From Armatimonadota bacterium (GTDB lineage: Bacteria > Armatimonadota > HRBIN16), in NCBI GenBank assembly GCA_963677485.1, contig OY781964.1:2571288-2635287 (forward strand): 64,000 nucleotides of DNA. The letters run 5' to 3'. Positions within the stretch are counted from its first letter, which is position 1; each line of letters opens with the position of its first letter. Of this stretch, positions 9,666 to 47,232 are shown in pieces. Position numbers and translations under genes: made by a program. The notes under the pieces were generated by a model that did not search any database, had not been told where the DNA came from, and was given only the letters and a program-made list of their open reading frames with translations.

Positions 9666-9808
9666 TTTGGTATCTCCTTTGTGCTAAGTGTACCTTGTGG
9701 CTGGTGACTATAGTTGGCGGGAGCGGAACTCTGCTGAAAGCAAATGGTCGTTCTATGGGCAACCTGCACGATCGGTCGGATTAGTCCAATCCGTCGGATT
9801 CTAGCCAC

Positions 9809-10444
9809 TCACTCCTCCTGGTCGTCCAGCAGATCGCCTAGCGGCAGGGTGCTGGTGGAGAGCTTCTCCCGCCAGTAGCTCCGTAACTGCTCCATCTCGG
9901 GGTTATCGCCATACGCCAGGTCGAGTATCAGCATCACCACATCGGGCCAGCGGCCATCGATCACATTGATCGCCACGGGCCGGTTGGGACGTTCATTGAG
10001 CTCGTTGTGGAAGGCGTGGATCAGCCGGTCGATCAGCATCAGCTTCTGACGGCTGCTCTGAGCACCTTCAAACTGCTCCACAAACGCGGTCACCGCGGTT
10101 AAGGCGTTGGTCGCCACCAACTGCTTATCCTTGTAGCTGCGGTAGTATTGCTCCCAACTCGTCTCCCATCCGCATGAGGGACACCTGATGATCTCCTCAC
10201 CTCGCTGCTTACCCATGCGTTTATCGGTGCGGATGATGAGCTGTTCGCACTGTGGACAAGTCACACGCCCCTCTATCGCTGCGGTGACGGTGAGCAGACT
10301 CCGGCAACGCAAGAAAAGGGCGATGAACAGATCGTCCAGCAACTGCTCATCAAGCTGATCCCGTGCCTCGGATTCGTAGAGCTTCCGAATCTTATCAGGA
10401 CTCACCTTAGGGGCCCACTTGATGCGGGGCGATTGCGCTGTCAT
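9809..10444 (-). CDS. hypothetical zinc-ribbon protein
   Basis: CPQCEQ...CPSCGW forms a four-Cys ribbon. Start chosen at the ATG preceded by GGAGAG; the longer ORF extension to 10567 would run into the GH3 promoter. Confidence 0.45.
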   Translation of the reverse strand: MTAQSPRIKWAPKVSPDKIRKLYESEARDQLDEQLLDDLFIALFLRCRSLLTVTAAIEGRVTCPQCEQLIIRTDKRMGKQRGEEIIRCPSCGWETSWEQYYRSYKDKQLVATNALTAVTAFVEQFEGAQSSRQKLMLIDRLIHAFHNELNERPNRPVAINVIDGRWPDVVMLILDLAYGDNPEMEQLRSYWREKLSTSTLPLGDLLDDQEE

Positions 10445-10630: not shown

Positions 10631-13282
10631 ATGAGACTTTTCCTGATCTGTGCGCTGCTGTTCGCATCAGCGAATGGTGCGTTTGCCGCCAATCTCCCCA
10701 CCCCATCCAATCCAAAGGACAAGGCCATGGAACGCAAGATCGAAGCATTGTTGAAGAAAATGACCATCGAAGAGAAAGCCGGTCAGGTCAACCAGAGCGG
10801 CTTTGGACCGTTCGAAAAGTATATGACCTCCAAAACCGGCCTTGGCCACCTGGTGCTGCAGTGGGGTGGAGGCACCACCTCTACACAGGCCGCGGCCGAA
10901 GTGAACCGGCTGCAGAAACTCGCAGTGGAGAAAACCCGGCTGAGCATCCCCTTGCTGGTAGGCTGTGATGGAATCCTGGACGCCCGCGTGGCCGATTCCG
11001 TCACCTTCCCGCAGGAGATAGGGATGGGCTCCACCTGGAACCCCGGCCTGATTCAGAAGGTCTACTCGGTGATATCCAAAGAGCTGCGCGCGGTGGGATA
11101 CGGACGCACCTACACACCTAACGTGGGACTGGCCCGCGACCCCAGGTTCGGCCGAACCGGTGAGTGCTACAGCGAAGACACTTACCTCACTACCCAGATG
11201 GCCATCGCCGCGGTGCAAGGCTTGAAGGACGAGTCGCTGAAGACCGGCATCATGGCCACCCCAAAGCATTACGCGGCCTACGACGCCACAGACGGCGGGA
11301 AAGACTCATCGGCGATTGATATCTCCGACCGGCGGTTGCGTGAGGTGTGGCTGCCTCCCTTCCGTGCCGCGGTGGATGCCGGTGCTGGTTCGATCATGTG
11401 CGCCTACCACGCCGTGAACGGGGTGCCGGTCGCGGCCAACCACTATCTGCTCACGGACATCCTGAGGAATGAGTGGGGGTTCGACGGGTTTGTCGTCACC
11501 GACTTCGTGTGCATCGAAAGCCTGCACAACTCCCAGCATGTGGCTGAGAGCTTCGATGATGCGATCAAGCTGGCCTTCGAAGCGGGCGTGGATGTGCATG
11601 ACCACGACATGGGTGATGACTTCGCCACCCGGATGGCGGCCCTGGTTCACAAAGGCACCATTTCGGAGAAGGTGCTGGATGAGGCTGTCCGCCGCACTCT
11701 CCGCGCCAAATTTAAACTGGGGCTCTTCGACAACCCGTATGTGGATGTGGAGAAGGCCTCGCAGACTGTCGGCACGAAAGAGCATCAGCAGCTCTCTCTT
11801 CAGACGGCGCGCGAATCGATCGTGTTGTTGAAGAACGACAAAGAGGCCCTCCCGCTGAAGAAGGATGTGGCTTCCATTGCGGTGATCGGGCCCAACGCGG
11901 ACAGCCTCAAGAACCAATGCGGGGTATGGGTGCGTGACCCGCAGGGCTACACCTCGCGGATGGTCACCATACTGCAGGGCATCAAGAGTGCGGTCTCACC
12001 TGGCACTGTGGTCAACTACGCCAAAGGCTGCGAGGTGATGGCCGGATCGCTCTCGATGACCGATATCCCGATCCTCACTGCTGGCTCGCAGGCTGGCTGG
12101 CAGGCGGAGTATTTCAACAACAAGGAGCTGGAAGGCACGCCAGTGCTCACCCGCATTGATGCGAAAGTGGACTTCGACTGGGGCAACGGCTCTCCGGCTC
12201 CCGAGGTGAATGTGGATAACTTCTCCGCCAGATGGACGGGCCGCTACACCGCTTCCTGCAGCGGTAAGCACCGGTTTAACCTAGATGTAGATGATGGCGT
12301 ACGCCTTTACGTCGATGACAAGCTGGTGATGAACGCCTGGCCAGACCATGTGGGTGTCACCACCGCCTTGGTTGAGATGCAGCAGGGGCAGCAGTATGAA
12401 CTCCGCGTGGAATACCATGAAAGTACCGGCGGTGCGAAGTGCAAGCTCACGATGGAGACGCCCATCGCGGGTGAGGCGGGCATCGCCGAGGCGGTAGTTG
12501 CGGCGAAGCAGTCCAGTGTCGCGGTGGTGGTAGTGGGCGACTGCCCGGAACTTAACGCGGAGATTCACGACCGTGCCGACCTGAACCTCACCGGCTATCA
12601 GCAGCAACTGGTGGATGCGGTCTATGCAACCGGCACCCCGACCGTGGTGGTGCTTGTCAATGCCCGGCCGCTGACCATCAACCGCATCGTCGATGGTATC
12701 CCCGCCATCGTAGAGGCATGGAATCCGGGCGAGCAAGGCGGAACGGCCGTGGCGGAGGTGCTGTTTGGCGACTACAACCCTGGCGGTAAGCTGCCGATCA
12801 GCTTCCCGTATTCGGTGGGACAACTGCCTGTCAACTACAACCAGGAGCCTGGCTGGCACCAATCGGGCGACTACTGCGACGGCACGCCCTCCGCGCTGCT
12901 ATACAACTTCGGCTTCGGGCTCAGCTACACCAGCTTCAAATACAGCAATCTGCGGCTTTCCAAACCAGAGATGGGCCGCGACGGCCAGGTGGAAGTAAGT
13001 GTAGACGTGCAGAACACCGGACAGCGGGCGGGCGATGATGTGGTGCAGATGTATATCCACGACCCCGTAGCCAGCGTGGTCCGACCCGTCAAGGAGCTGA
13101 AGGGGTTCAAGCGCGTGCATCTGCAACCCGGTGAGCGTCAGAGGGTTATCATCGTGTTGAAGGCCGACCAGCTTGCCTTCTTCAACAACGCGATGAAGTG
13201 GGTGGTGGAGCCTGGCGAGATTGATATCATGGTGGGCGGCAACTCCGTGGAGCTGCAAAGCGTGAAGCTCACGGTGAAGTAA
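10631..13282 (+). CDS. glycoside hydrolase family 3 beta-glucosidase (BglX-like) with a PA14 insertion and signal peptide
   Basis: Signal peptide MRLFLICALLFASANGAFA after an AAGAAGG RBS. The GH3 catalytic region has GFDGFVVTDF. The PA14 domain reads GWQAEYFNNKELEGTPV...FSARWTGRY. A C-terminal fibronectin-like domain follows. Confidence 0.85.
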   Translation: MRLFLICALLFASANGAFAANLPTPSNPKDKAMERKIEALLKKMTIEEKAGQVNQSGFGPFEKYMTSKTGLGHLVLQWGGGTTSTQAAAEVNRLQKLAVEKTRLSIPLLVGCDGILDARVADSVTFPQEIGMGSTWNPGLIQKVYSVISKELRAVGYGRTYTPNVGLARDPRFGRTGECYSEDTYLTTQMAIAAVQGLKDESLKTGIMATPKHYAAYDATDGGKDSSAIDISDRRLREVWLPPFRAAVDAGAGSIMCAYHAVNGVPVAANHYLLTDILRNEWGFDGFVVTDFVCIESLHNSQHVAESFDDAIKLAFEAGVDVHDHDMGDDFATRMAALVHKGTISEKVLDEAVRRTLRAKFKLGLFDNPYVDVEKASQTVGTKEHQQLSLQTARESIVLLKNDKEALPLKKDVASIAVIGPNADSLKNQCGVWVRDPQGYTSRMVTILQGIKSAVSPGTVVNYAKGCEVMAGSLSMTDIPILTAGSQAGWQAEYFNNKELEGTPVLTRIDAKVDFDWGNGSPAPEVNVDNFSARWTGRYTASCSGKHRFNLDVDDGVRLYVDDKLVMNAWPDHVGVTTALVEMQQGQQYELRVEYHESTGGAKCKLTMETPIAGEAGIAEAVVAAKQSSVAVVVVGDCPELNAEIHDRADLNLTGYQQQLVDAVYATGTPTVVVLVNARPLTINRIVDGIPAIVEAWNPGEQGGTAVAEVLFGDYNPGGKLPISFPYSVGQLPVNYNQEPGWHQSGDYCDGTPSALLYNFGFGLSYTSFKYSNLRLSKPEMGRDGQVEVSVDVQNTGQRAGDDVVQMYIHDPVASVVRPVKELKGFKRVHLQPGERQRVIIVLKADQLAFFNNAMKWVVEPGEIDIMVGGNSVELQSVKLTVK

Positions 13283-13315
13283 GGCATAGAGCCGATTGGC
13301 CGGAAGGGAATGATA

Positions 13316-13568
13316 ATCCACAGATTACGCAGATTACACGGATTCGGTCATGGCCGGTGCGGTTTTCCCTTCTGCGCCGGCAAGTAGGTCGGATGGATAC
13401 AAACGCAATGACGCAAGGAAGCAAAGGCGCAAAGGGGAGGGTATATAACGGCGCGGTCATGAGCCATCTCCCCATCCGTGTCATCCGATAAATCCGCGCA
13501 ATCCGTGGTTCAGACAAAGGTCCGCGCGGTCATGACCTCATCTGTGTCATCTGCGTAATCTGTGGATT
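13316..13568. repeat. MITE-like element, family A (TIR aatccacagattacgcagat...)
   Basis: 253 bp bounded by inverted repeats: aatccacagattacgcagattacac at the left and catctgtgtcatctgcgtaatctgtggatt at the right. The interior carries a gcaaaggcgcaaagg motif shared with other copies. Confidence 0.6.
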
Positions 13569-13580
13569 ATGATTCCTGTG

Positions 13581-15766: not shown

Positions 15767-17362
15767 TTACAGGTCGCCCTGAGCTCCGAAGTTCTGGTCG
15801 ATGATCACATAGTCGAACAGGTTCACCAGACCATCGCCATCAAGGTCCGCCATGGCATAGCTCGAGCCGAAATGCGAATCGAGCACCACAAAATCAAACA
15901 GGTTGACCATGTTATCGCCATCGGCGTCGCCGTTTGTCAGCGCAATGATCTGACCCGAGATGCCATCCACCGTAATGTTACGGAATACCCGCTTCAACCA
16001 GTGGCTGCCGTCCAGGCTAAGGGTATAGGTGCCGACACGCAGCCCCTTGATGCTGCCCTTACCGGAGTGATCCAGGACCAGGCTGCCGGTATAGTTATCG
16101 GCTCCGGTCAGGATGTAAGTGAGGGTGATATTCTCATAGGCCCCTTTGTATTCACTGCCGGTGGTGATGGTCACATTGAAGCTGGTGGGCTGGTATACGA
16201 TGAAATCAGTGGCACTCTGCACCGATCCGCCTGAGGTGGTCACTTCGATCGGGCCGGTGGTGACACCCTGGGGCAGTGTCGCCTTAATAGTGGCGTCATC
16301 CACCACCGTAAACTGCGCGTTCCAACCATCAAAACTCACCGATATGGTCCCTGCCGTGCTGGCGTTGGCCAATCCGATGAAGTTCTGGCCTTTGATGGTG
16401 ATCTCCTGGCCATAGCTGCCGGCGGCGGCACCGTCTGGTGTGAACGAGCTAATCAGTGGGGCCGGCACAGTCATCACTTGAAAATTCTTGGAGCTGGCCG
16501 CCATACCACCTGCGGTGCTGACCACGATCGGCCCGGTAGTCACACCTTGTGGCAGAATCACCGTGATCGTGGAGTTATCCACCACTGTGCAGGCCGCACC
16601 CCACCCACCGATGGTGACGCTGGTATCGCCACCGATGTGGTTGCCCACAATCTTGAAGTTGGTGCCTTTGATAGTGATCACCTTGCCGTACTCACCGACG
16701 AAGCACTTCTCTGGCGTGAAGGAACTGATAGTGGGCACAGGAACGGGTATCACCGTAAAATTACTGGCACTGGTAGCCGTACCGCCGGATGTGGTCACAG
16801 CAACCTTACCGGTGCTCACACCTTGCGGCACCGTCGCTTTGATGGTGGTGGCATTAACGATTGTAAAGTCCGCACCCCATCCGCCAATGGTCACATCGGT
16901 TGCGCCGCTAAAATAGGTGGCGGCCACACTGGCAAAGTTGGTGCCCGTGATCGTGATCTCTTGACCATAATCATCTACATAACCAGTATTGGGTGTGAAT
17001 GAGCTGACGGTGGGTGCAGGGATGGGCCGCACCTCGAAATCCTGTGCGCTTGATACGGAGCCACCCGGGGTCGTCACAGTAATAGGCCCTGATATCACCA
17101 CCTCAGGAAGCACCGCCGTGATCTTGGTACTGCTGACCACCGTAAAAACCGCTGGCAGCCCTGTAAAGCTGACCGCCGTGGTTCCGGTGAAGTTGGTGCC
17201 GTTGATGGTAATCTGCTGCCCAAAATCCCCCTCATAGGTGCTTGTAGGCGAAAATGTGCTGATGGTGGGTACTGAGACCGCAAATGCGGGGGCGACAAAT
17301 AGGCATACTAAAAGCAGCCAGGCCGGTAAGAAGATGCATTTATGACGATTCATGGACGACAC
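15767..17362 (-). CDS. cell-surface protein with five IPT/TIG repeats and a C-terminal type-I dockerin
   Basis: Signal peptide, then five roughly 95-aa repeats (PTISSFTP...GTNF...VVD.TTI...LP.GV.TGPI.V.T.GG). The C-terminus has DADGDNMVNLFDFVVLD and DLDGDGLVNLFDYVIID, a duplicated dockerin calcium-binding motif. Repeats are also visible at the DNA level. Confidence 0.7.
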   Translation of the reverse strand: MSSMNRHKCIFLPAWLLLVCLFVAPAFAVSVPTISTFSPTSTYEGDFGQQITINGTNFTGTTAVSFTGLPAVFTVVSSTKITAVLPEVVISGPITVTTPGGSVSSAQDFEVRPIPAPTVSSFTPNTGYVDDYGQEITITGTNFASVAATYFSGATDVTIGGWGADFTIVNATTIKATVPQGVSTGKVAVTTSGGTATSASNFTVIPVPVPTISSFTPEKCFVGEYGKVITIKGTNFKIVGNHIGGDTSVTIGGWGAACTVVDNSTITVILPQGVTTGPIVVSTAGGMAASSKNFQVMTVPAPLISSFTPDGAAAGSYGQEITIKGQNFIGLANASTAGTISVSFDGWNAQFTVVDDATIKATLPQGVTTGPIEVTTSGGSVQSATDFIVYQPTSFNVTITTGSEYKGAYENITLTYILTGADNYTGSLVLDHSGKGSIKGLRVGTYTLSLDGSHWLKRVFRNITVDGISGQIIALTNGDADGDNMVNLFDFVVLDSHFGSSYAMADLDGDGLVNLFDYVIIDQNFGAQGDL

Positions 17363-17519
17363 TCCTTCATGGGCAGCAGTGATATCCGTCCATTATGGGC
17401 GGTTTCACTATGTACGTTCCACTCATATCATACCCGTTGGTGTCACCGGTTTCCATATACAAGCTTCCGCCCGTCTATGCACGGCAGCTCATACTGTAAC
17501 TGATGCGTTCCAAATATTT

Positions 17520-17683
17520 GCCTAAGTCCGGGGCGGTCTGCGAGTAGGCTAGCGGCTGCAGAAGGCTCGAGACCGCGCCGGTCTGGCGGATAGCCATGAA
17601 AGATAGGTGTCGTGAACAAGACCGGCGCGGTTTATCGACAGCGGGCATCATAGGCTTACTGACAGACCGCCCCGGACATAGCC
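17520..17683. repeat. MITE-like element, family B (TIR gcctaagtccggggcggtctg)
   Basis: 164 bp with 21-bp terminal inverted repeats: gcctaagtccggggcggtctg at the left and cagaccgccccggacatagcc at the right. The internal gaccgcgccggtctggcgg / caagaccggcgcggt forms an inverted pair. A near-identical copy lies at 20216-20380. Confidence 0.6.
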
Positions 17684-17757
17684 AACCCAGTTACATGCAA
17701 GCAAAACCCCTCGAACGATATAGCCCGAGGGGTTGGGGAGGGAAGCCAGGGGATGCT

Positions 17758-18857: not shown

Positions 18858-19814
18858 ATGAAACTGCGTCAAACCATCACCATACTCGCGATCATCGCCT
18901 CAAGCAACTTGGCCGCATGGCTGTTGTTTCGAGAGCAAAAGATCCCGACGCAGTGGATCGGCCCCAGCGCATTTTGTGCTGTGACACTGGGCTCACTGAT
19001 CATCGCGCTCATCCTGGCGGGAATACAAACCCGATTGGACCGGCTCCACGAACCGGCAGAACGTCGAGAAACCCCTCCAGACGATAACCCATGGACCGCC
19101 CAGGTGATGCTGTTTGGCGGGAGCGACCGCGAAGCGTTGCAGGCAGACCTGTACACGGCCAGCAAACTGGGTGCCGTGAAAGTCGTCGGGAAAAGCATGG
19201 AGCTCACTCCGGCCTCCGCCGAGGTATTGCCCGACCGAATTCAACGGCTTCTGCAGCCGCTGCAGGGCGGTCAGAAGAGCCACTTTGTCTCCACATATGA
19301 ACTGATTCGCAGAAAGGCCGCACGGCAGGCAGGCAAGCAGATCAACTATACGGCCAGCTATGTGATGCCAGTGGGATTGTTCGTCCTGATGATGGGGTTA
19401 GCGATTGCCGCTCCTTTGGGTGAAACCACAAAGCCCCTGGTTACTCTACTGAGCTGGATCATCGCCTCCGCACTGTATTTGTCTATTCACACGCTTACCA
19501 GTTGGATGATGTGGACGGCGAAACCCAGGATTGTGGAGGGCCTAACCGCTGGATACTGCGTCTATGTGGTTGCAATGGCGGCGATGCAGGCCCACTGGCC
19601 AGACCTGATGCCGTTCTGGTTCCTGGGATTTATGGCCTCTGTGCTGGGTGGCATCTGGCCGCTCTGCTGGCGTGTGAAGGGCGCTCACCAGAGTGTACAG
19701 ATGCAGTGGACGGCCTATTGGAGCTATCTGCGCAGTGTGGCGGCCAGCAATGACCCGGCGGTGCTGGAACGCCACAAGGCGATGCTCATCGCGCTGCATA
19801 TGCGCCGGATGTAG
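18858..19814 (+). CDS. hypothetical integral membrane protein
   Basis: 318 aa with several predicted TM segments. No recognisable motif. Confidence 0.45.
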   Translation: MKLRQTITILAIIASSNLAAWLLFREQKIPTQWIGPSAFCAVTLGSLIIALILAGIQTRLDRLHEPAERRETPPDDNPWTAQVMLFGGSDREALQADLYTASKLGAVKVVGKSMELTPASAEVLPDRIQRLLQPLQGGQKSHFVSTYELIRRKAARQAGKQINYTASYVMPVGLFVLMMGLAIAAPLGETTKPLVTLLSWIIASALYLSIHTLTSWMMWTAKPRIVEGLTAGYCVYVVAMAAMQAHWPDLMPFWFLGFMASVLGGIWPLCWRVKGAHQSVQMQWTAYWSYLRSVAASNDPAVLERHKAMLIALHMRRM

Positions 19815-19876
19815 GGGCGGTCGGCGGTGTATGCCCTGGGCGTGGAAACCACGCCCCTACACGTCGCGCGTGCCTG

Positions 19877-20104
19877 TCTGAACCACGGATTACACGGATT
19901 ACACGGATAGGAACGGATGGGACGGTTATATGTCTGAACCACGGATTACACGGATGGCACAGATAGGTTCAGGCGGAGAGGGAGGCCAATCCGGAGATTG
20001 GCGTTCCCAGGTGAATGCCAACCTTGCGCCATTGTATCTCTGCGCCTTTGCGTTAGAATCCCATCCGTGTCATCGAATTCATCCGTGTAATCCGTGGTTC
20101 AGAC
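19877..20104. repeat. MITE-like element, family A variant (TIR ctgaaccacggattacacgg)
   Basis: Left end tctgaaccacggattacacggattacacgg. Right end ccgtgtaatccgtggttcaga. There is an internal duplicated copy of the left end, and the interior gcgcctttgcgtt motif is shared with family A. Confidence 0.55.
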
Positions 20105-20215
20105 GAATCCTCGGCGCGGTCTGGCGGATAGCCCAAGCTACTAGCCCACACACCCACGATTAGGGAAAGCCTGCAAGGAGGTTCCGTGTAGATACTGTTA
20201 TTGACTCGCAAGCGT

Positions 20216-20380
20216 TGCCTAAGTCCGGGGCGGTCTGTGCGCAGGCTAGCGGCTACAGACTGCTCAGGACCGCGCCGGTCTGGCGGATAGCCATGATAGA
20301 TCGGTGTCGGGAACAAGACCGGCGCGGTCTATGGACAATGGCGATTGCCAGCGTACCGCCAGACCGCCCCGGACATAGGC
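20216..20380. repeat. MITE-like element, family B (second full copy)
   Basis: Roughly 85-90% identical to 17520-17683 (estimated by eye), with the same 21-bp TIRs. Confidence 0.6.
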
Positions 20381-20419
20381 ATAACCGGATGCCCACGAGG
20401 GGCATCCGACGTGCGGACG

Positions 20420-23983: not shown

Positions 23984-24318
23984 GGGGCGGGCGAAGCTGA
24001 GCTTGTCAGTAACTGGTCGTTATAAAGGTTATTCCGGCTAATTGCGACGGGTTCCATCAGCCCGCTAAAGCAGGCCTCATCACCCGTCGCTTATCATCTG
24101 GCGGTCCGCTGAAGCGGACGCGGGCATAATCCCTGCGCCGGCCGGAGCGTAGCGGCGCCGGCCGCTAATGATCAGCCACGCGGTGTGGAAACCCCGTAGG
24201 GACGCCAGTCCCGTGGGGTGACTGAACCCGTGGCCATTTGCCGACATTATCCGTTACACCATGGGCTGCCGTGTCTGCACGGGCGGGTGCTTGTTCCTGA
24301 CACAAATCATCATGGCTA

Positions 24319-24385
24319 ACCGCCAGACCGGCGCGGTCTTGAGTCTTCTGCATCCGCTAGCCTACGCACAGACCGCCCCGGACAG
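24319..24385. repeat. partial family-B MITE (3' half)
   Basis: aaccgccagaccggcgcggtcttgag...cacagaccgccccggacagtggc matches the right half of family B. Confidence 0.45.
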
Positions 24386-24708
24386 TGGCAACGCTTGGCT
24401 GCAATAGAGGCGAATAGCCATTCGCATATCGATCTGTCGCCTCAGCGTGACGCATCAGTTGCAGCCTGGGCTGCCGTGTCAACACGGGCATGTGCTTGTC
24501 CTTATAACTCCGCGATCGGCACGGTGAGGATGCCAAATATCAGCGGGAGCATGTTACTGCCCGGAGGCCATGGTGGGACGCAAAGTTTGGATACAGGCAG
24601 TCATCACCCAGGAACTCGTCACGCGGCCGTCGAGTTGTAGGTATAACTGCCTGCAGTTTCGGTGACACCACGAAGGGGGAGCCTTATCCCGCTCGCATTC
24701 CTCCGAGG

Positions 24709-27638: not shown

Positions 27639-27718
27639 TACAGGAGCTTGTCAGTTCCTGCACTGTTATTAGGACTGTCTGCTTCTTGGTATGGTTATCA
27701 TGACGCCCACCGGATTTC

Positions 27719-27775
27719 TCTGAACCACGGATTACGCGGATTGATAGGATGGCACGGATGGAGAGGGAGGACTGG
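27719..27775. repeat. partial family-A MITE (left end only)
   Basis: ctgaaccacggattacgcggattgataggatggcacggatggagagggagg parallels the left end of the 19877-20104 copy. Confidence 0.4.
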
Positions 27776-30582: not shown

Positions 30583-30645
30583 CGCAACCGCGAGGGGAGG
30601 GTTTGTGTCACGCGGAGACGCGGAGGGCGCGGAGGGGGAAGGTTC

Positions 30646-30792
30646 ATCCACAGATTACGCAGATTTCGCAGATGAGGTTCTGAATGACCGCATCGGAAGG
30701 CATCTGCATAGAAAGCGCAAGTGTGACGATAAACCTCGCAGTTCATTCGCTTTCGCACGAATTAATCTGCGCAATCTGTGTAATCTGTGGAT
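30646..30792. repeat. MITE-like element, family A (short copy)
   Basis: Ends atccacagattacgcagatttcgcagat and atctgcgcaatctgtgtaatctgtggat are inverted repeats. Confidence 0.55.
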
Positions 30793-30917
30793 GATTCCCT
30801 CCGATGAAGCCAACATAAGAACCAATAGGACATGTCAGACGAGTAGGACGAGGTGGAGTTATTGCCACAATAACGTAATTATTCCGTCTCCTATCTCCTC
30901 GCTATCTCCTCCCCAAG

Positions 30918-33526: not shown

Positions 33527-33613
33527 AAATGCTCTTTTCCCCTGGGTGATCGGTGCTCTACAGGGCTATTATGCCACGAGCGGTGCTTGTGCTGCCTTTT
33601 TGGTGGGTGCAAT

Positions 33614-34200
33614 AATCCACAGATGACACAGATTGCGCAGATTGGGTTGTGGTCTCACGCGAAGACGCGAAGGACTATACGGTCGACCTTCGCATCGGCG
33701 TCATCTGTGTCATCTGTGGATTGCCCTTCTCCTCGTGCCGATAGCCATCCGCCTTGGAGCAAGACCGGCGCGGTTAGGGAAAACCGCCCCGGACATAGGC
33801 AATTGAGCTATAGCGGTCGTCTCCCCTGCGCCGGAAGGGCTGAACCACGAATTCGGAATTGTCTCACGCGAAGACGCGAAGGATCATACGGTCAACCTTC
33901 GCATCTGCGCCATCTGTGGATTGTCTTTCCCCTCGTGCCGATGGCCATCCGCCTTGGAGCGAGACCGGCGCGGTTAGGGAAAACCGCCCCGGACATAGGC
34001 AATTGAGTTATAGCGGTCGCCTCCCCTGCGCCGGTCGGGCTGAACCACGAATGAACACGAATTCGGAATTGACTCACGCGAAGACGCGAAGAGTGTACGG
34101 TCAACCTTCATATCTGCGTAATCTGCGTAATCTGTGGATTGTCCTTCCCTTCTGCCTTCGCGTCTTCGCGTGAGACTTGACCGGCGGTGTCGTCTTCCGC
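33614..34200. repeat. composite tandem repeat, about 210-bp unit and about 2.6 copies, built from family-A and family-B MITE fragments
   Basis: Units begin tcacgcgaagacgcgaagg at 33655, 33867 and 34073. Each contains ccttcgcatc...catctgtggattg and gaccggcgcggttagggaaaaccgccccggacataggc. The array ends with the inverted copy ccttcgcgtcttcgcgtga at about 34165. Confidence 0.6.
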
Positions 34201-36316: not shown

Positions 36317-36535
36317 TCCGGCACCCACGAAGTGGGTAAGATTCATTATAGCCAGGGGTGAGCGAAGCGATACCCCTGGTAAAGGTTGCACCTTCTTACC
36401 CCGAAGTGGGTCGAACCATGTCGGCACCACAGAAGGCCCACGTTCGTGGGTAAATGATGTTGGGCTGCCTTCCACGGGTTACGCTTTCGCTCACCCGTGG
36501 CTATAATGAATCGCACCCGCTTCGGGGTGCCCGGA
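36317..36535. repeat. structured repeat, family C copy 2 (long imperfect palindrome)
   Basis: ccggcacccacgaagtgggtaagattcattatagccaggggtgagcgaagcg ... cgctttcgctcacccgtggctataatgaatcgcacccgcttcggggtgcccgg. The arms are imperfect reverse complements of roughly 100 bp. It shares its core with 9014-9170. Confidence 0.5.
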
Positions 36536-39998: not shown

Positions 39999-41579
39999 GT
40001 GTTCGCCCTGTGTTTATACGCCAGTTGGAAGGTTGTTGAACCAGCCAGTTTCGTCCGTAAAGGAGACATCATGCCGCGTAAAATGTTGATTCTGCTGCTC
40101 TGCGGGGCGATGATGCATTACTTCCTCGGGTTCATACCAAGGGGCATCGTGCCCAAGGATGTGAACCATCTGCTATCAGAGCAAATCAAGCAGATAAAGG
40201 AGGGTTACCGGCCGCCGGCTGTCATGCCAAAAAGCTGGCTGGTCATTACTGCAGGTAGCTCTTATCGAACGCTGCTTTACCTAAGCGAAAGCAATCCCGA
40301 CCAGCAAGCCGTTGAGCGCGCGTTCACAAAGATGGGTGCGCTGCCTGGCGAGGTCACGTCCGGCATGAGCGGCCGCCGTTACGTGATGCGATGGCACCAC
40401 CAGTGGTCATACTTTGGCCGGTTATATGCATCCACAGACCTGTATCCTGAGAATCTCCGCCTTCGGTTTGTGCGTGCCATGGGGCTGTCCGCACAAACCC
40501 CAACGATACCGATGATGGTCTGCGTAGACAAATGCGCCGCGCTGGATCCTAAATCGTATGGCTACGGCGAGTCGGGCAATGAGTTGATGGTCGTTAATGG
40601 GAAGTTCGTCGCAGATGAGGTTCTGAATATCAGCCAGTGGATTGACTGGTACCAATGCATATTCTTCGTGGCGTTTGTGATCGGGTTTGTGTGGGATATG
40701 CTGAAATGGCGAAAAAATCATGACAAACGGTCGAATCTACAACTGCCATTGATGCAGCACGTGAAGATATTTAGGCAGACAACAAGCATGGTATTGGTCG
40801 TGATGTTCACATTTCTAAACCATAATGGATATCATGAGTTGTTTGGCAACGGGCTTATAGATATGTGGGCAGGTGGGACGCGAAACATATTGTTGGGGTT
40901 AGTTTTATTTTCACCGATCCTGTGTTATGTGTTGGCAGCGGCGCCGATACGATACCACCTCAAGGCTGACCTGTCGAAAGCGGTATCACAGCAGCACGAG
41001 CGATTTCCAATCCTTCAAAAGACACTTTCTAACATAATATACAAGCGATCGAAACAGCTACGGCATGAAGACTACATCCTGGCAAAGTGTGACAGCCTCG
41101 ACCTGATGGGAGTTCTGCTTTCAGTCGACCACAGCAGGAAGATCGTGTTCGTGCCGCCAATGGCACGGTTGGGTATGGATGTCGCCCAAATTGACTTCTG
41201 GATCACGCGAGCACTTCAGGACCCTCACAGTCGACGCAACTACGACATGGCGGTCGGCTTATGCCTACTCGCCGCGGGCGGTTTCACGCAGATTATGGGA
41301 TACCGGACAGCATCCATCATACTGCAGGTTGTTTTTTTGGCCATTGTGTTTCTGTGGATCGGTGGAAGGTGGGGTATTGAGACGGTCAGGAACACCCGTG
41401 CCGACCTCGCTGCCATCGCGGTAACAGGTGACCCAGAAAGTGCCAAGCGGGCGATCAACCGGCTGTTTGGCAACGGCAAGACCGGTGCGATCGAAACCCC
41501 CAAACGCATACTCACCATCGATGCGAAATACCCACCCGCTGCGAAGGCTGTCGAGAAGGTGCTTGAAGCCGTTCCGTAG
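39999..41579 (+). CDS. signal-peptide membrane protein with periplasmic N-domain and degenerate M48/HtpX-like C-terminal region, paralog 4
   Basis: Signal peptide MPRKMLILLLCGAMMHYFLGF. An extracytoplasmic domain of about 190 aa, then TM helices, then RNTRADLAAIAVTGDPESAKRAINRL (compare the HtpX motif REFHADAGSAKLTG...ALQRL). No HEXXH anywhere in the protein. Confidence 0.55.
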   Translation: MFALCLYASWKVVEPASFVRKGDIMPRKMLILLLCGAMMHYFLGFIPRGIVPKDVNHLLSEQIKQIKEGYRPPAVMPKSWLVITAGSSYRTLLYLSESNPDQQAVERAFTKMGALPGEVTSGMSGRRYVMRWHHQWSYFGRLYASTDLYPENLRLRFVRAMGLSAQTPTIPMMVCVDKCAALDPKSYGYGESGNELMVVNGKFVADEVLNISQWIDWYQCIFFVAFVIGFVWDMLKWRKNHDKRSNLQLPLMQHVKIFRQTTSMVLVVMFTFLNHNGYHELFGNGLIDMWAGGTRNILLGLVLFSPILCYVLAAAPIRYHLKADLSKAVSQQHERFPILQKTLSNIIYKRSKQLRHEDYILAKCDSLDLMGVLLSVDHSRKIVFVPPMARLGMDVAQIDFWITRALQDPHSRRNYDMAVGLCLLAAGGFTQIMGYRTASIILQVVFLAIVFLWIGGRWGIETVRNTRADLAAIAVTGDPESAKRAINRLFGNGKTGAIETPKRILTIDAKYPPAAKAVEKVLEAVP

Positions 41580-41584
41580 CGGTG

Positions 41585-41935
41585 CTGATGCATGCGGCGG
41601 TTTGCCTTTATTTAACCACGAATGGACACAGATGAACGCGGATACCGGAATCCAACGCAAAGGCGCAGAGGGGCAAAGAGCGCAATGGTTCAGTTCGAAT
41701 CGCGGACAAAGCCGACCACCCAGCACGGTCATATACCTTTGCGTCATTGCTTCTTGGCGTCTTTGCGTTGAATCCCGTCCGTGTAATCCGTGGTTCAGAC
41801 AATTTGTAACCACGAATGGACACGGATAGACACGAATGGACACAGATGAACGCGGATACCGGGAATCTAACGCAAAGGCGCAGAGGGGCAAAGGGCGCAA
41901 AGTTGCTGATGACCGCATCCGGTTCTTGACAAGCC
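41585..41935. repeat. cluster of family-A-related MITE copies
   Basis: Repeated aaccacgaatggacacagatgaacgcggataccggaa, acgcaaaggcgcagaggggcaaag and gtccgtgtaatccgtggttcagac motifs. An almost identical cluster follows the next paralog at 43545-43990. Confidence 0.55.
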
Positions 41936-42034: not shown

Positions 42035-43540
42035 ATGCCGCGTAAAATGCTGATCCTGCTGCTCTGTGGGGCTCTAATGCATTACTTCCTCGGGTTCATG
42101 CCGAAGGGTATCGTGCCCAAGGATGTGGATCATCTGCTGTCTGAGCAAATCACGCAGATCAAAGCAGGTTACCAGCCGCCAGCGACAATGCCGAAAAACT
42201 GGCTGGTGATTGCCGCCGGAAGCTCCTATCGAACCCTGTTTTACCTCAGCGAAAACAAGCCCGACCAGCAAGCCGTTGAGCGCGCGTTCACAAAGATGGG
42301 TGCACTGCCAGGCGAGGTCACCGCCGGTATGAGCGGTCAACGTCATGTGATGCGATGGCACCACCAGTGGTCGTACCTGGGCCGGATATATGCTTCGACA
42401 GATCTGTACCCTGAAAATCTCCGCCTTCGGTTTGTCCGCGCCATGGGGCTGTCCGCACAAACCTCTACATTGCCGATGCTGGTGTGCGTAGACAAATGCG
42501 CCGCGCTTGACCCACCACAATATATCGACAGCGCGAACCGCGATGAGTTGATAACCGTGCAAGGACCGTTCGTCGCGGGCGAAGCGTTGAATATCAGCCA
42601 GTGGATCGCCTGGTGGCTGTGGCTTGTGTTGGCAATATTTATGTTTGCGTTCATTTGGGAGATGTTGGCACCGCGTGAACATGACAAACGGTCGGACCCG
42701 AAAATGTCGCTGATGCAGCATGTGATGGCCTTTAAGCAGATAACAAGCGCTGTTGTAGTTGGGCTGTTCCTATTTCTGAACCATGATGGACTTCAAGAGA
42801 TGCTTGGCAACGGGCTAGTCGATCTATGGGCGGGTGGGACGCGAAACATATCGTTAGGATTAGTTTTATTTTTACCGATCGCGTGTTTTGTGTTGACTTC
42901 GGTGTCGACAAGATATCGCCTCAAAGCCGACCTGTCGAAAGCGGTATCACGGCAGCACGAGCGACTTCCACGCCTGCAAAAGACCCTCGCGGAGATCGTC
43001 TACAAGCGATCGATGCAAATACGGCATGATGACTACATCCTGGCAAAGTGTGACCGTCTCGACCTGATGGGAGTTCTGCCCTCAGTGGACCATAAACGGA
43101 AGATCGTGTTCGTGCCGCCGATGGCGCGGCTAAGCATGGATGTCGCCCAAATTGACTTCTGGATCACGCGAACACTACAAGACCCTCGCAGCGGACGTAA
43201 TTGGGATATAGGGATCGGTCTTGGCGTGCTCATCGCAAGCGGTGTCACGCAGATCATGGGATACGACAACGCCTCCCTCATACTGCTGCTTGTTTTTTTG
43301 GCCATCGTGTTTCTTTGGGTAGGGGGCAATTGGGGTTATGAAGCGGCCAAGAACACTCGGGCTGACCTGGCTGCCATCGCCGTGACAGGCGACCCCGAAA
43401 GTGCCAAGCGGGCGATCAAGCGGCTGTATGGTTATAGCAAGAACGGTGCTAAGGAGACACCGAAGCGTATACTCGCCATCGATGTGAAATACCCGCGCGC
43501 TGCGGAGGCCGTCGAAGAGGCAGTCGAGGCTGTTTCGTAG
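42035..43540 (+). CDS. paralog 5 (about 75% identical to paralog 4, estimated by eye)
   Basis: Same signal peptide and domain order as paralog 4. C-terminus reads RADLAAIAVTGDPESAKRAIKRLYG. Confidence 0.55.
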   Translation: MPRKMLILLLCGALMHYFLGFMPKGIVPKDVDHLLSEQITQIKAGYQPPATMPKNWLVIAAGSSYRTLFYLSENKPDQQAVERAFTKMGALPGEVTAGMSGQRHVMRWHHQWSYLGRIYASTDLYPENLRLRFVRAMGLSAQTSTLPMLVCVDKCAALDPPQYIDSANRDELITVQGPFVAGEALNISQWIAWWLWLVLAIFMFAFIWEMLAPREHDKRSDPKMSLMQHVMAFKQITSAVVVGLFLFLNHDGLQEMLGNGLVDLWAGGTRNISLGLVLFLPIACFVLTSVSTRYRLKADLSKAVSRQHERLPRLQKTLAEIVYKRSMQIRHDDYILAKCDRLDLMGVLPSVDHKRKIVFVPPMARLSMDVAQIDFWITRTLQDPRSGRNWDIGIGLGVLIASGVTQIMGYDNASLILLLVFLAIVFLWVGGNWGYEAAKNTRADLAAIAVTGDPESAKRAIKRLYGYSKNGAKETPKRILAIDVKYPRAAEAVEEAVEAVS

Positions 43541-43544
43541 CTGT

Positions 43545-43990
43545 GCCGATGAGTGCGGCGGTTTGGTTCCATTTAACCGCGAATGGACACAGATAGACAC
43601 GAATGGACACAGATGAACGCGGATACCGGGAACCCAACGCAAAGGCGCAGAGGGGCAAAGGGCGCAATGGTTCAGTTCGAATCGCAGACAAAGCCGACCA
43701 CCCAGCGGTCATTTACCTTTGCGTCATTGCATCTTGGCGTCTTTGCGTTGAATCCCGTCCGTGTAATCCGTGGTTCAGACAATTTGTAACCACGAATGGA
43801 CACGGATAGACACGAATGGACACAGATGAACGCGGATACCGGGAACCCAACGCAAGGGCGCAGGGGTGCAAAAGCGCAAAGGTTCTGTTCGAGCCGCGGA
43901 CATAGACGACCATCCAGCGCGGTCATATACCTTTGCGTCATTGCTTCTTGGCGTTTTTGCGCTGAATCCCGTCCGGTTCCCCATACACAC
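43545..43990. repeat. cluster of family-A-related MITE copies (duplicate of 41585-41935 with an extra unit)
   Basis: Same motif order as the upstream cluster, with additional acgaatggacacagat repeats. Confidence 0.55.
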
Positions 43991-44057: not shown

Positions 44058-45662
44058 ATGAGGTTCTTTGCCGTAATGATAGCACTGTGTAGCTGCGCTG
44101 CGTTGGCCCAGACGCAAAAGCCGTTCCAAGTGGGTATCGAGCTGCCCACTATGTTGCCAGTCGACCCCACCGTGGAGCTGATGTTGAAGGACCTTGGGGT
44201 GAACTACCTCAACTTCTATACATTCAACAACTACGGCCCGCCGGAGCAGGATGCCATGGCGGTGTATGACGCGCAGGCGGCATTGGCGAAGCGGCTGGGG
44301 GCGAACTACCAACTGGCGTGCCACCACATGGATGTGCCCGAGGCGGTGGTGCGCAAGGCGGCGCAGGACCCGCTCTGCCAAGGTGTGATCATTGATGAGT
44401 TGGAGCACATCCGGCTGCTGTGGCGAGTGGCGGGACCCTCTGCGGCGGTGCTCGCTGACCCAGCGACCTTCACCGACCTCTATGATGCCCACGACAAATC
44501 GGTGGCGGCCTGGCAAAAACTGGCTGATAAGTATCGCGGATACGGTCTGACCAACTTCAACAGCACGCACGTTTGGCCGGTGCTGCTCTCGGTGGCGGCG
44601 AAAGGCGGATGGAACCCCACGCCAAAAATCTGCAAGGAGTTCTACTCGCCGGTTTCGCTTGCCATCGGCATGGGCGCTGCGCTGCAGTATGAAAAACCGC
44701 TGATGGTAGACTGTGACCTGTGGTTCTGGGATCTGCTGCCCGGTCACACGCCCGAGGAGTATCGCAGCAATCTGCTGCTGGCCTACTGGAGCGGTGCGGA
44801 CGGCGTATATACCGAGGGTGCCGGGTTCAACCTGTATCCTGCGGGTCGGCAGGGGTTTCCACACACCCTCATGGCAAAGCTGACCGACACGGAGTATTCG
44901 CTCACAGCCCATGGCGAGATACTGCGCTGGTTCATTAAGGATTATCTGCCGAAGCACCCGCGTGCCTGGAGCTTCCGCGACATCCAGCCGGATGTGGCGA
45001 TCATCCGGTTCGAGGATAGCTGTTTTGGCCAGCGTTTCAGCAATATGCCGGACACGCTGTATGGCAGCGAGAAGCTGAAGAGCGATGCCGACACCGAGGC
45101 CTGGTTCCAGATTTGGAACGTGCTGACGGGTGGCAAGACCGGCCGAGACGGTATCAGCATGTTCCGAGCCACCCAGGGCATGTTTGGCCTGGAGTATGTT
45201 CCGCACACCACGCGGCGCGACAGCTACCTCACCCGGCCCATGATGTCGGGTTCGCACAACTTCTGGACGCCCCTGAACAACGTGGTGGTGTTCGACGACA
45301 CCGTGACCGCGGAGCGTCTGGGGCAGATCCCCTGCCTGTTCCTCACAGGCAAGCGGATCAGTGATGAGACTTGGCTGGCGGTTCAAGAGCGTGTGAAGCA
45401 GGGGGCGACTTGCGTGATCTGGGCTCCGCTGGCGAAGAAGCTGGGGCTGGAACCCAAGGGCGACATCACTGAACTGACCATGGGCAAGGGCAAGATGATC
45501 ATCACCACCGATTTTGGGCTGACACCGGTCACCACCGCCGTGTGGAGCTTCATCGGCCGCGCCGACCAGATCCGCTACCGCTTCAAGCAGGGTGAAGTGG
45601 TGTTTAAGACGCTCGACGAAAACAAGGTGGATGTTCAGACCACGGTGTATCCCAACCCGTAG
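44058..45662 (+). CDS. secreted hypothetical protein (possible glycoside-hydrolase-like TIM barrel)
   Basis: Signal peptide MRFFAVMIALCSCAALAQ. 534 aa. Ends with TAG, directly followed by a GC hairpin. No family assigned. Confidence 0.45.
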   Translation: MRFFAVMIALCSCAALAQTQKPFQVGIELPTMLPVDPTVELMLKDLGVNYLNFYTFNNYGPPEQDAMAVYDAQAALAKRLGANYQLACHHMDVPEAVVRKAAQDPLCQGVIIDELEHIRLLWRVAGPSAAVLADPATFTDLYDAHDKSVAAWQKLADKYRGYGLTNFNSTHVWPVLLSVAAKGGWNPTPKICKEFYSPVSLAIGMGAALQYEKPLMVDCDLWFWDLLPGHTPEEYRSNLLLAYWSGADGVYTEGAGFNLYPAGRQGFPHTLMAKLTDTEYSLTAHGEILRWFIKDYLPKHPRAWSFRDIQPDVAIIRFEDSCFGQRFSNMPDTLYGSEKLKSDADTEAWFQIWNVLTGGKTGRDGISMFRATQGMFGLEYVPHTTRRDSYLTRPMMSGSHNFWTPLNNVVVFDDTVTAERLGQIPCLFLTGKRISDETWLAVQERVKQGATCVIWAPLAKKLGLEPKGDITELTMGKGKMIITTDFGLTPVTTAVWSFIGRADQIRYRFKQGEVVFKTLDENKVDVQTTVYPNP

Positions 45663-45663
45663 G

Positions 45664-45692
45664 GGCGACCGGCGGTCGCCCTTGTTGGTGGG
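45664..45692 (+). terminator. GC-rich hairpin, candidate intrinsic terminator
   Basis: ggggcgaccggcggtcgccc is a perfect 9-bp stem, followed by ttgttggtgg. A second hairpin ggggcaggcccccgtgcctgcccc at 45796-45819 lies downstream of the convergent M42 gene. Confidence 0.35.
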
Positions 45693-45697
45693 GGATT

Positions 45698-45733
45698 CAA
45701 TCCACAGATTACACAGATTACGCAGATTTGTGG
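45698..45733. repeat. solo family-A TIR-like fragment
   Basis: aatccacagattacacagattacgcagatttgtgg. Confidence 0.4.
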
Positions 45734-45869
45734 GGCGATGGGACGTGACGTCTGGCGTAGGGGCGGGGTCACCCCGCCCACCACACCCCAACCCGTAGGG
45801 GCAGGCCCCCGTGCCTGCCCCATATAACCATAGCCCCATGGACGGGGTCACCCGCCCCCCAAATCCAGC

Positions 45870-47168: not shown

Positions 47169-47198
47169 CTAAGTCTGTTGAGGCAAAATCAACAGTAA

Positions 47199-47232
47199 AG
47201 TGGGTGCAAAGTGGTGTCAAACTGGGTGCACT
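47199..47232 (+). promoter_or_regulatory. MraZ-box-like direct repeats
   Basis: aGTGGGtgcaaaGTGGTgtcaaacTGGGTgcac: three (G)TGG(G) boxes spaced about 10-12 bp apart, between the putative promoter and the mraZ start codon. Confidence 0.45.

Follow-up and report, generated by a model that had tools for sequence, protein, structure and literature searches.

Hairpin-forming repeats of short tandem units, resembling REP/BIME elements, in intergenic spacers of an Armatimonadota genome

The hairpin-forming intergenic repeats in a 64-kb stretch of an Armatimonadota genome, the whole of which is referred to here as the window, are composed of short tandem units of 8-10 bases. They are best supported as REP/BIME-type hairpin repeats that have expanded in this lineage and have been enlarged by local duplication. 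More precisely, we regard the elements, at a probability of about 0.55, as a multi-unit variant of REP/BIME-type repeats that is probably handled in the form of single-stranded hairpins by an HUH/Y1 enzyme. In terms of classification, they are described as working like REP/BIME elements, as a multi-unit and untagged variant, and are not filed as a proven member of that class. An initial annotation had taken the same repeats for a family of MITEs. The observation itself is confirmed, and the reading as an active MITE family is partly supported: the family is real, dispersed, and intergenic with inverted ends, but it lacks a target-site duplication, a common length, and a conserved core, and no transposase with its ends was found in the DNA examined.

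Architecture of the repeats

The basic unit is a heptamer, C-R-C-R-G-A-T, with a spacer of 2-3 nt. Two to five of these units follow one another with a period of 9-10, and the resulting arrays usually form inverted pairs, with the left run on the plus strand and the right run on the minus strand, giving long hairpins. In its generalised form, the unit has the core C-R-C-R-R-A-K and 1-3 spacer bases. When an array is defined as at least two CRCRGAT units spaced by 8-11 nt, the window contains 18 of them, compared with 0.025 expected from 200 block shuffles, and the generalised unit CRCRRAK yields 28 arrays against 0.585 expected by shuffling. Likewise, the 15-mer CCACAGATTACGCAG has 25 matches in the window with up to three mismatches, whereas 1.7 are expected and none of 100 shuffles reaches 25. 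The heads of the arrays are of type A, (A/C)ATCCACAGAT…, type B, TCTGAACCACGGAT…, or a third, period-10 type, AACCACGAATGGACACAGATGAACGCGGAT. Whole elements are mosaics of the short-period modules CACAGATTA, CACGGATGGA, ACGCAAAG, ACGCGAAG, and ACGCGGAG, the last three of which accompany the heads as inverted pairs with a period of 8-9, often with the head TCTCACGC. Searches of Rfam returned no match at the gathering threshold, and relaxing E to 5 brought none at the elements; a tRNA scan found no tRNA. In a string search of the literature, the 16-mers and 14-mers of the repeat were absent, and its 11-mers matched unrelated texts only (primer-like, judging by title).

The motif is present at all nine places listed in the initial annotation (13316-13568, 19877-20104, 27719-27775, 30646-30792, 33614-33722, 34100-34145, 41585-41935, 43545-43990, and 45698-45733), which are not equivalent. 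At the first of them, the string AATCCACAGATTACGCAGAT begins at 13315/13316 and its complement terminates at 13568. Four sites are full hairpins (13307-13576, 19875-20107, 30644-30794, and 33611-33723), and five are solo ends (27715-27765, 45698-45730, 34112-34136, the partial 33894-33930, and the nested 13468-13518, which had been missed). The 41.6-kb and 43.5-kb sites (41585-41935 and 43545-43990) are composite hairpins with a period-10 variant, CACGAATGGA and similar. The features are as follows.

13307-13576, unstranded: type-A composite hairpin; arms of 50 nt, 88% complementary; predicted RNA fold -136.7 kcal/mol
13319-13343 (+) and 13540-13564 (-): outer arms of this hairpin, three tandem 9-nt units each
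13403-13434 (+): inner module ACGCAAAG, four copies with period 8
13468-13518 (-): nested solo right end of type B (…AATCCGTGGTTCAGACA), 88% to 27715-27765
19811-19860, unstranded: canonical GTAG-tagged REP pair (GTAGGGGC…) adjoining the type-B element
19875-20107, unstranded: type-B hairpin (TGTCTGAACCACGGATTACACGGAT … ATCCGTGTAATCCGTGGTTCAGAC); predicted fold -111.4 kcal/mol
19931-19967 and 20029-20062: second left head and CTTTGCG module, respectively, inside the type-B hairpin
27715-27765 (+): solo left end of type B in a divergent spacer, with no partner within 400 nt
30610-30636 (+): ACGCGGAG module, three copies with period 8-9, abutting the element at 30644-30794
30644-30794, unstranded: type-A hairpin with three units per arm; arms of 30 nt, 93%; DNA fold z -6.1
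33611-33723, unstranded: type-A hairpin with an inner ACGCGAAG module (33658-33672); fold z -7.1
33652-34052 (+): tandem duplication, 200 nt x 2, 89% matches, containing a ACGCGAAG module, part of a type-A right end (33894-33930), and a fragment of family B
34072-34176, unstranded: ACGCGAAG-type hairpin (heads TCTCACGCG… / …CGCGTGAGA) around the solo type-A right end at 34112-34136
41612-41803, unstranded: composite hairpin of a period-10 array (41617-41643) and a type-B right end, with the modules CGCAAAGG (41656-41690) and CTTTGCGT (41737-41768) inside
41806-41902 (+): left half of a further composite, a five-unit period-10 array with a GCAAAGGG module
43573-43783, unstranded: copy of the 41.6-kb composite (96%), made along with the duplication of paralogous genes (flanking genes 85% and 79%)
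43786-43975, unstranded: second tandem composite in the same spacer, 96% to 41726-41892, with a second match at 84%
45659-45681, 45757-45779, and 45795-45821 (+): three canonical GTAG REPs around a solo type-A left end, with stems of 8-9 bp directly after GTAG
45698-45730 (+): solo type-A left end, three units

A shared interior motif had also been proposed. gcaaaggcgcaaagg or its complement does occur at 13403-13434, 20029-20062, 41656-41690, 41737-41768, 41871-41902, 43638-43667, and 43717-43748, but not at the 30.6-, 33.6-, 34.1-, and 45.7-kb sites, which have ACGCGGAG or ACGCGAAG modules or nothing. In agreement with the annotation, every site is flanked by long ORFs whose Pfam domains are of ordinary kinds, among them GH3, GDSL esterase, melibiase, serpin, histidine kinase, UvrD-like helicase, metallo-beta-lactamase, and M42 peptidase. 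Four sites are in convergent spacers, two in tandem spacers after a gene, and two in divergent spacers (27.7 and 33.6 kb). The density, given as roughly one copy per 6 kb and called unusual, is about one site per 8 kb, which is ordinary for REP-rich genomes such as that of E. coli.

Local duplication and gain in this lineage

Near-identical copies within the window are local only, namely the 200-nt tandem unit at 33652-34052 and the composites at 41.7 and 43.7 kb (96%). The composites at 41.6 and 43.5 kb are 96% and 84% identical because both belong to a region in which the paralogous genes 39999-41579 and 42035-43540 were duplicated in tandem, taking the composites along. The best matches between loci cover 51 nt at 88% and 75 nt at 73%, with modules in common and no core, and on this account the recent activity that had been suggested is not borne out.

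Syntenic contigs are available from relatives in which the histidine kinase is 75% and 66% identical and the M42 peptidase 86% identical. These relatives have 0-1 arrays in 25 kb of syntenic DNA and ordinary GC-hairpin-plus-T terminators at the corresponding junctions; for example, the GFO/melibiase junction measures 60 bp with an ordinary terminator in a relative, as opposed to 605 bp here. Since relatives at 66-86% protein identity lack arrays at matching gene junctions, the expansion took place in this lineage, although the same divergence is too great for exact element boundaries to be drawn. Their absence from these relatives is the sole ground on which the elements may be presumed mobile. 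In the closest relative (L272), the gene for the M42 peptidase is not accompanied by the region that spans 36 to 45.7 kb here, which may therefore be an insertion specific to this lineage. Named homologues of the peptidase are no closer than 56-57% identity, and these come from Armatimonadota, indicating that the organism comes from a poorly sampled lineage.

The repeats are not restricted to the window, as a local duplication would be. About 2.2 kb past its end, this genome has another mosaic of the same modules, inside which a short-read contig of the same organism breaks, and the type-B head is also present in another 5.3-Mb genome (L044). No family-A array occurs in the 7.6 kb preceding the window start. 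In practical terms, about 3 kb of the window is a repeat mosaic that breaks short-read assemblies, seeds spurious ORFs, and marks spacers that have been remodelled compared with those of relatives.

Distribution in other genomes and phages

At least 118 species-representative genomes, isolates included, contain the 17-mer CCACRGATTACRCRGAT, and they represent well over ten phyla; the count proves nothing by itself because about 555 chance matches are expected in 596 Gb. The carriers belong to Acidobacteriota, Verrucomicrobiota, Planctomycetota, Bacteroidota, Proteobacteria, Chloroflexota, Gemmatimonadota, Spirochaetota, Ignavibacteriota, candidate phyla, and others. A third periodic unit accompanies 52 of the 145 matches under a strict test and most of them by eye, and an inverted array lies within 400 nt of 59. 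In viral contigs, the array pattern occurs at 120 loci or more, compared with 30 for its reversed sequence. A second module, ACGCAAAGGCGCAAAGG, which has the conserved head (T)CTCACGC, occurs at 57 loci, compared with 6 for the reversed control, and forms both head-outside and head-inside dimers; the ACGCAAAGG family does likewise, as REP families do.

Outside the window, the arrays lie in 23 convergent and 9 divergent spacers, against a background of 80 and 88 (Fisher p 0.013). No neighbouring gene recurs across about 100 genomes, the neighbours being unrelated housekeeping genes: 150 flanking ORFs hit 202 Pfam families, none of them in more than four ORFs and none a transposase; when 2,967 ORFs from 118 loci were clustered all against all, generic families only were returned; and no transposase was found with array pairs separated by 0.5-4 kb. 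A segment of one viral contig (L148) and a synthetic array had no BLAST match among phage and plasmid records, in the latter case probably because of low-complexity masking.

While the case of the window is fairly ordinary, the periodic repeat form seen across phyla is part of a wider interest. A hairpin core that extends from Acidobacteriota to Bacteroidota, candidate phyla, and phage contigs, in a multi-unit form without GTAG, would widen the known sequence range of REP systems or indicate an unrecognised conserved partner. Such a repeat would also account for many small 'hypothetical proteins' with 3-residue periodic sequences.

Several individual loci deserve mention. In a delta-proteobacterial MAG (L035, 1013-1768), six hairpins of the family are arranged in tandem with a spacing of 130-132 nt, and they are of two subtypes in alternation, which makes a higher-order repeat of 262 nt, present three times. 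In a phage contig, IMG/VR 3300021387_001464 (L148), CACGGAT and CACGAAT arrays at 7340-8420, 9700-9910, and 11490-11750 bracket single ORFs, beginning shortly ahead of the start codon and reaching the stop codon, with TTTTAACGA before and TTCAAAAA after, as if marking gene cassettes; the bracketed ORFs encode a Cys-rich protein of 67 aa and a radical-SAM-like protein that has a CxxxCxxC motif. In a Proteobacteria MAG (L075, 672-3023), a 783-aa ORF runs through a CACAGAT array (…GPQITQITQKGED…) and other short-period repeats; either the repeat was inserted in frame, or a stop-free hairpin has fused two genes.

Relation to REP/BIME elements

REP, BIME, and REPIN elements, which are mobilised by RAYT, an HUH Y1 transposase, are extragenic imperfect palindromes present in many copies. 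The window elements have the same properties: they occur as singles, as inverted dimers in both the head-head and tail-tail arrangement, and as tandem clusters mixed with other motifs, show a bias to gene 3' ends, and have expanded in a particular lineage. Insertion without duplication agrees with this relationship and does not prove it, as the relatives provide no close-strain empty site. There are differences, however. The 5' foot of the window elements reads TTA[T/G/A]-CCAC in place of a GT[AG]G or CGTC tag, whole elements reach about 270 nt, and each arm has 2-5 tandem units, whereas a REP arm is one stem of 8-20 bp. Moreover, the core is common to many phyla, whereas REP families are normally lineage-specific and are thought to be the lineage-specific partners of their RAYT.

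Canonical REPs are also present in the window. All five of these GTAGGGGC REPs (GTAG and then a G+C stem of 8-9 bp) lie in two of the eight family-A spacers, and they imply a RAYT-type system in this genome. No RAYT gene is present in the 85 kb examined of its 5.19-Mb contig, and a regular expression for the HUH/Y motif had no match in 2.9 Mb of fetched loci. Nor is any of 80 metagenome RAYT loci flanked by CRCRGAT arrays; arrays occur at two of the 80, one inside the RAYT coding sequence and the other 1.9 kb away. On a Chloroflexota plasmid (L342), a RAYT gene has short tandem units with CTCTCAC on its flanks. Two plasmid candidates for RAYT subclass 2.1 were set aside as too short for that subclass.

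REPs that flank RAYT genes of subclasses 2.6 and 2.7 contain the same heptamers, with one unit per arm (Quentin et al. 2018, PMC6006769, Table S1). According to the same table, the REP of Ignavibacterium album is GTAGCACAGATTAGTAATCTGTGCTAC, arranged as GTAG-CACAGATT-AGT-AATCTGTG-CTAC, and that of Chloroflexus aggregans is GTAGCACAGGATTAATCCTGTGCTAC, with the stem CACAGGATT. Flavobacterium johnsoniae has …GGCACGGATTGCAAATCCGCGC…, arranged as CTTTGCGG-GCACGGATT-GCA-AATCCGCGC, in which CTTTGCG stands in front of the stem heptamers CACGGATT/AATCCGCG. F. indicum has CCGCGCGAATCCTTTCGCGTGG, with a stem CGCGCGAA/TTCGCG that is also present in O. hongkongensis, and Flexibacter litoralis has GCGCAAGGTTCTACCTTGTGC, with the stem GCGCAAGG/CCTTGTGC (PMC6006769, Table S1). 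In contrast to these REPs, which have a single unit per arm and in many cases GTAG, the window elements are multi-unit and untagged, and no RAYT gene was found to adjoin them.

The enzyme and the single-stranded route are what we infer, and they would operate as follows. A trans-acting HUH/Y1 (RAYT-like) enzyme, the gene for which lies at another place in the genome, would recognise the elements when replication exposes them as hairpins of single-stranded DNA. This enzyme would copy them into AT-rich intergenic sites after a TTAN-like tetranucleotide, leaving no duplication. Arrays and clusters would then grow by slippage and local tandem duplication, and effects on transcripts, such as 3'-end protection and occasional termination, would be by-products.

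Other known repeats and sites offer less complete parallels. Short tandemly repeated repetitive (STRR) heptamers, which were reportedly described in heterocystous cyanobacteria by Mazel and colleagues in 1990, are likewise intergenic arrays of tandem heptamer-scale units scattered round the genome, but they differ in sequence, have a period of 7, are confined to cyanobacteria, and are not defined by regular inverted pairing. Integron attC sites were rejected: the type-B feet TCTGAAC / GTTCAGA fit only five of the seven box positions (RYYYAAC … GTTRRRY, by eye), and the sites, which have both orientations, are dispersed among housekeeping genes. The motifs of CsrA, IHF, NrdR, parS, and uptake sequences do not fit either.

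Alternative explanations

As MITEs, the elements would be deletion derivatives of a DDE-type IS that move by cut-and-paste through terminal inverted repeats (TIRs). Like the Correia/NEMIS, Nezha, and ERIC-like MITEs, they are small, non-coding, and intergenic, with many copies and inverted ends (arms of 30-50 nt at 88-93% in the four full copies); they are missing from the orthologous junctions of relatives, and the window contains one IS110-family transposase gene. However, MITEs are marked by a defined TIR, a target-site duplication, a cognate IS, and a length and core specific to the family, and none of these was found for the window elements. Their ends are tandem heptamer arrays of variable unit number rather than a unique TIR, solo ends are common (five sites), and element length is a continuum of 33-272 nt with no uniform size or shared core. 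The inverted repeat reaches only 2 nt outside CCAC, and no target-site duplication is visible in the window copies; among 69 non-redundant hairpins from the window and other sources, offsets of 0-6 revealed an excess of palindromic dinucleotides only. The IS110 element is single-copy here with no arrays at its borders, and IS110 elements are not known to have such TIRs. A cognate transposase with the same ends was found neither in the window, nor in 85 kb of this genome, nor in about 2.9 Mb of loci from other genomes, and none recurs beside the arrays of about 100 other genomes. These points make a MITE family quite unlikely. Alternatively, the repeats may act at the RNA level, by terminating transcription, protecting mRNA 3' ends, or regulating translation beside start codons. 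Their location mostly at gene 3' ends, the high predicted stability of the stems, and the arrays that abut start codons in phage contigs all fit this idea, as do the T runs that 26 of 65 hairpins of AT-rich genomes have within 16 nt, on one strand or both, compared with 5% in the background. Yet the window copies have no T tail and none of its hairpins is called terminator-like, which argues against the suggestion that they serve as terminators. Across genomes, downstream A runs are as frequent as T runs (30 vs 36). Copies also lie in the divergent promoter regions at 27.7 and 33.6 kb of the window, relatives use ordinary terminators at the matching junctions, and no Rfam family matches. Furthermore, G.U and A.C mismatches relative to transcription number 47 and 38 (p 0.39), and this lack of a strand bias fits a DNA-level element. 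A primary role in transcripts is therefore unlikely.

It is also conceivable that no dedicated enzyme is involved, the repeats having spread solely by replication slippage, hairpin-templated repair, and segmental duplication, with the likeness across phyla being convergent. Local tandem duplications are indeed demonstrable, the R positions are homogeneous within arrays (84 all-A-type and 36 all-G-type vs 23 mixed), and arms match better within one element than between elements (48% vs 34% at unselected positions). Such processes, however, fail to explain copies with related heads at eight or more separate spacers, the identical 17-mers and conserved feet in all those species, or the excess over the reversed-sequence control in viral contigs, and an origin of this kind is distinctly improbable. 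A different view starts from the foot of the elements. The bases that precede CCACAG were outside the search pattern and have the consensus tttAt. For this reason, the terminal 9-mer seen most often in the CCACAG subfamily is TTATCCACA (11 of 101), which is the consensus of the DnaA box; CCATCCACA, TTGTCCACA, and others come next in frequency. Element feet make up five of the 24 near-consensus DnaA boxes of the window. The arrays may accordingly be double-stranded protein-binding sites, in which converging 9-mers on a DnaA-box-like site bind, titrate, or recruit DnaA or a protein with a DnaA-type domain. The specificity of DnaA is conserved across phyla, and this would explain the cross-phylum conservation of the repeat. 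In addition, RAYT-like subclass 2.1.2 has a Bac_DnaA_C-like domain and no known REP partner (PMC6006769). The resemblance to oriC-type arrays of DnaA boxes includes two converging same-orientation 9-mer arrays, but the window elements are many per genome and, being absent in close relatives, dispensable, and a period of 9 leaves no spacing between units. Relative to TTWTNCACA, the terminal units of the window have 1-2 mismatches, whereas the interior units (GATTACACA, GATTACGCA, and GATTACACG) do not fit, departing from the box at positions 1-2 and in many cases at 7 or 9. In the CCACGG subfamily, position 4 is G or A and position 9 is G. Independent position frequencies already predict about 7 occurrences of TTATCCACA against the 11 observed. 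DnaA binding is rated highly unlikely, given that the interior units misfit and the CCACGG subfamily fits poorly.

A broader and quite unlikely scheme would unite the CACRGAT arrays and their sister CTCACGCAAAGG arrays in a pan-bacterial, phage-borne superfamily of periodic hairpins, kept alike in more than ten phyla by a conserved trans-acting protein that reads the DnaA-box-like foot TTATCCACA; the candidate would be RAYT-like subclass 2.1.2 or, alternatively, recruited DnaA. By analogy, the TTAN of the foot may instead serve a Y1 enzyme as a guide or as the target of insertion, a part that a tetranucleotide of this type plays in the IS200/IS605 family.

Other features of the window

The sole transposase of the window is the IS110-family protein of 473 aa encoded at 2411-3832 (-), which matches Transposase_20 and, weakly, DEDD_Tnp_IS110. 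Its gene is single-copy on record and lies in a low-GC stretch (about 2000-4400) with 48% G+C, compared with about 55% elsewhere. Tandem paralogue sets with no Pfam match and a DNA identity of 79-85% are present at 36705-37673/37741-38691 and at 39999-41579/42035-43540/about 44300-45662.

An unrelated second family of repeats (TGCCTAAGTCCGGGGCGGTCTG… / …CAGACCGCCCCGGACATAGGCA) is arranged as inverted pairs with about 100 nt between them, at 17518-17685, 20209-20381, 24309-24397, 33767-33801, and 33967-34001. It is further recorded at L120 (9420-9446) and L275 (about 16650-17130), being present both in a relative with 75% protein identity, a contig of which ends in the repeat, and upstream of the window. 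The third and small repeat TTATAGCCAGGGGTGAGCGAAGCGATACCCCTGG occurs at 9042-9079 and 36469-36506 and in L275 at about 17150-17190; a 65-nt inverted pair at 36302-36366/36486-36550 is listed with it. Finally, three direct repeats with a period of 11 (AAAGTGGGTGC) are located at 47197-47230, at the head of the mraZ-rsmH-mur-fts cluster, and resemble the repeated MraZ operator; the relative L272 has ACCACTTTGC repeats at the corresponding position.
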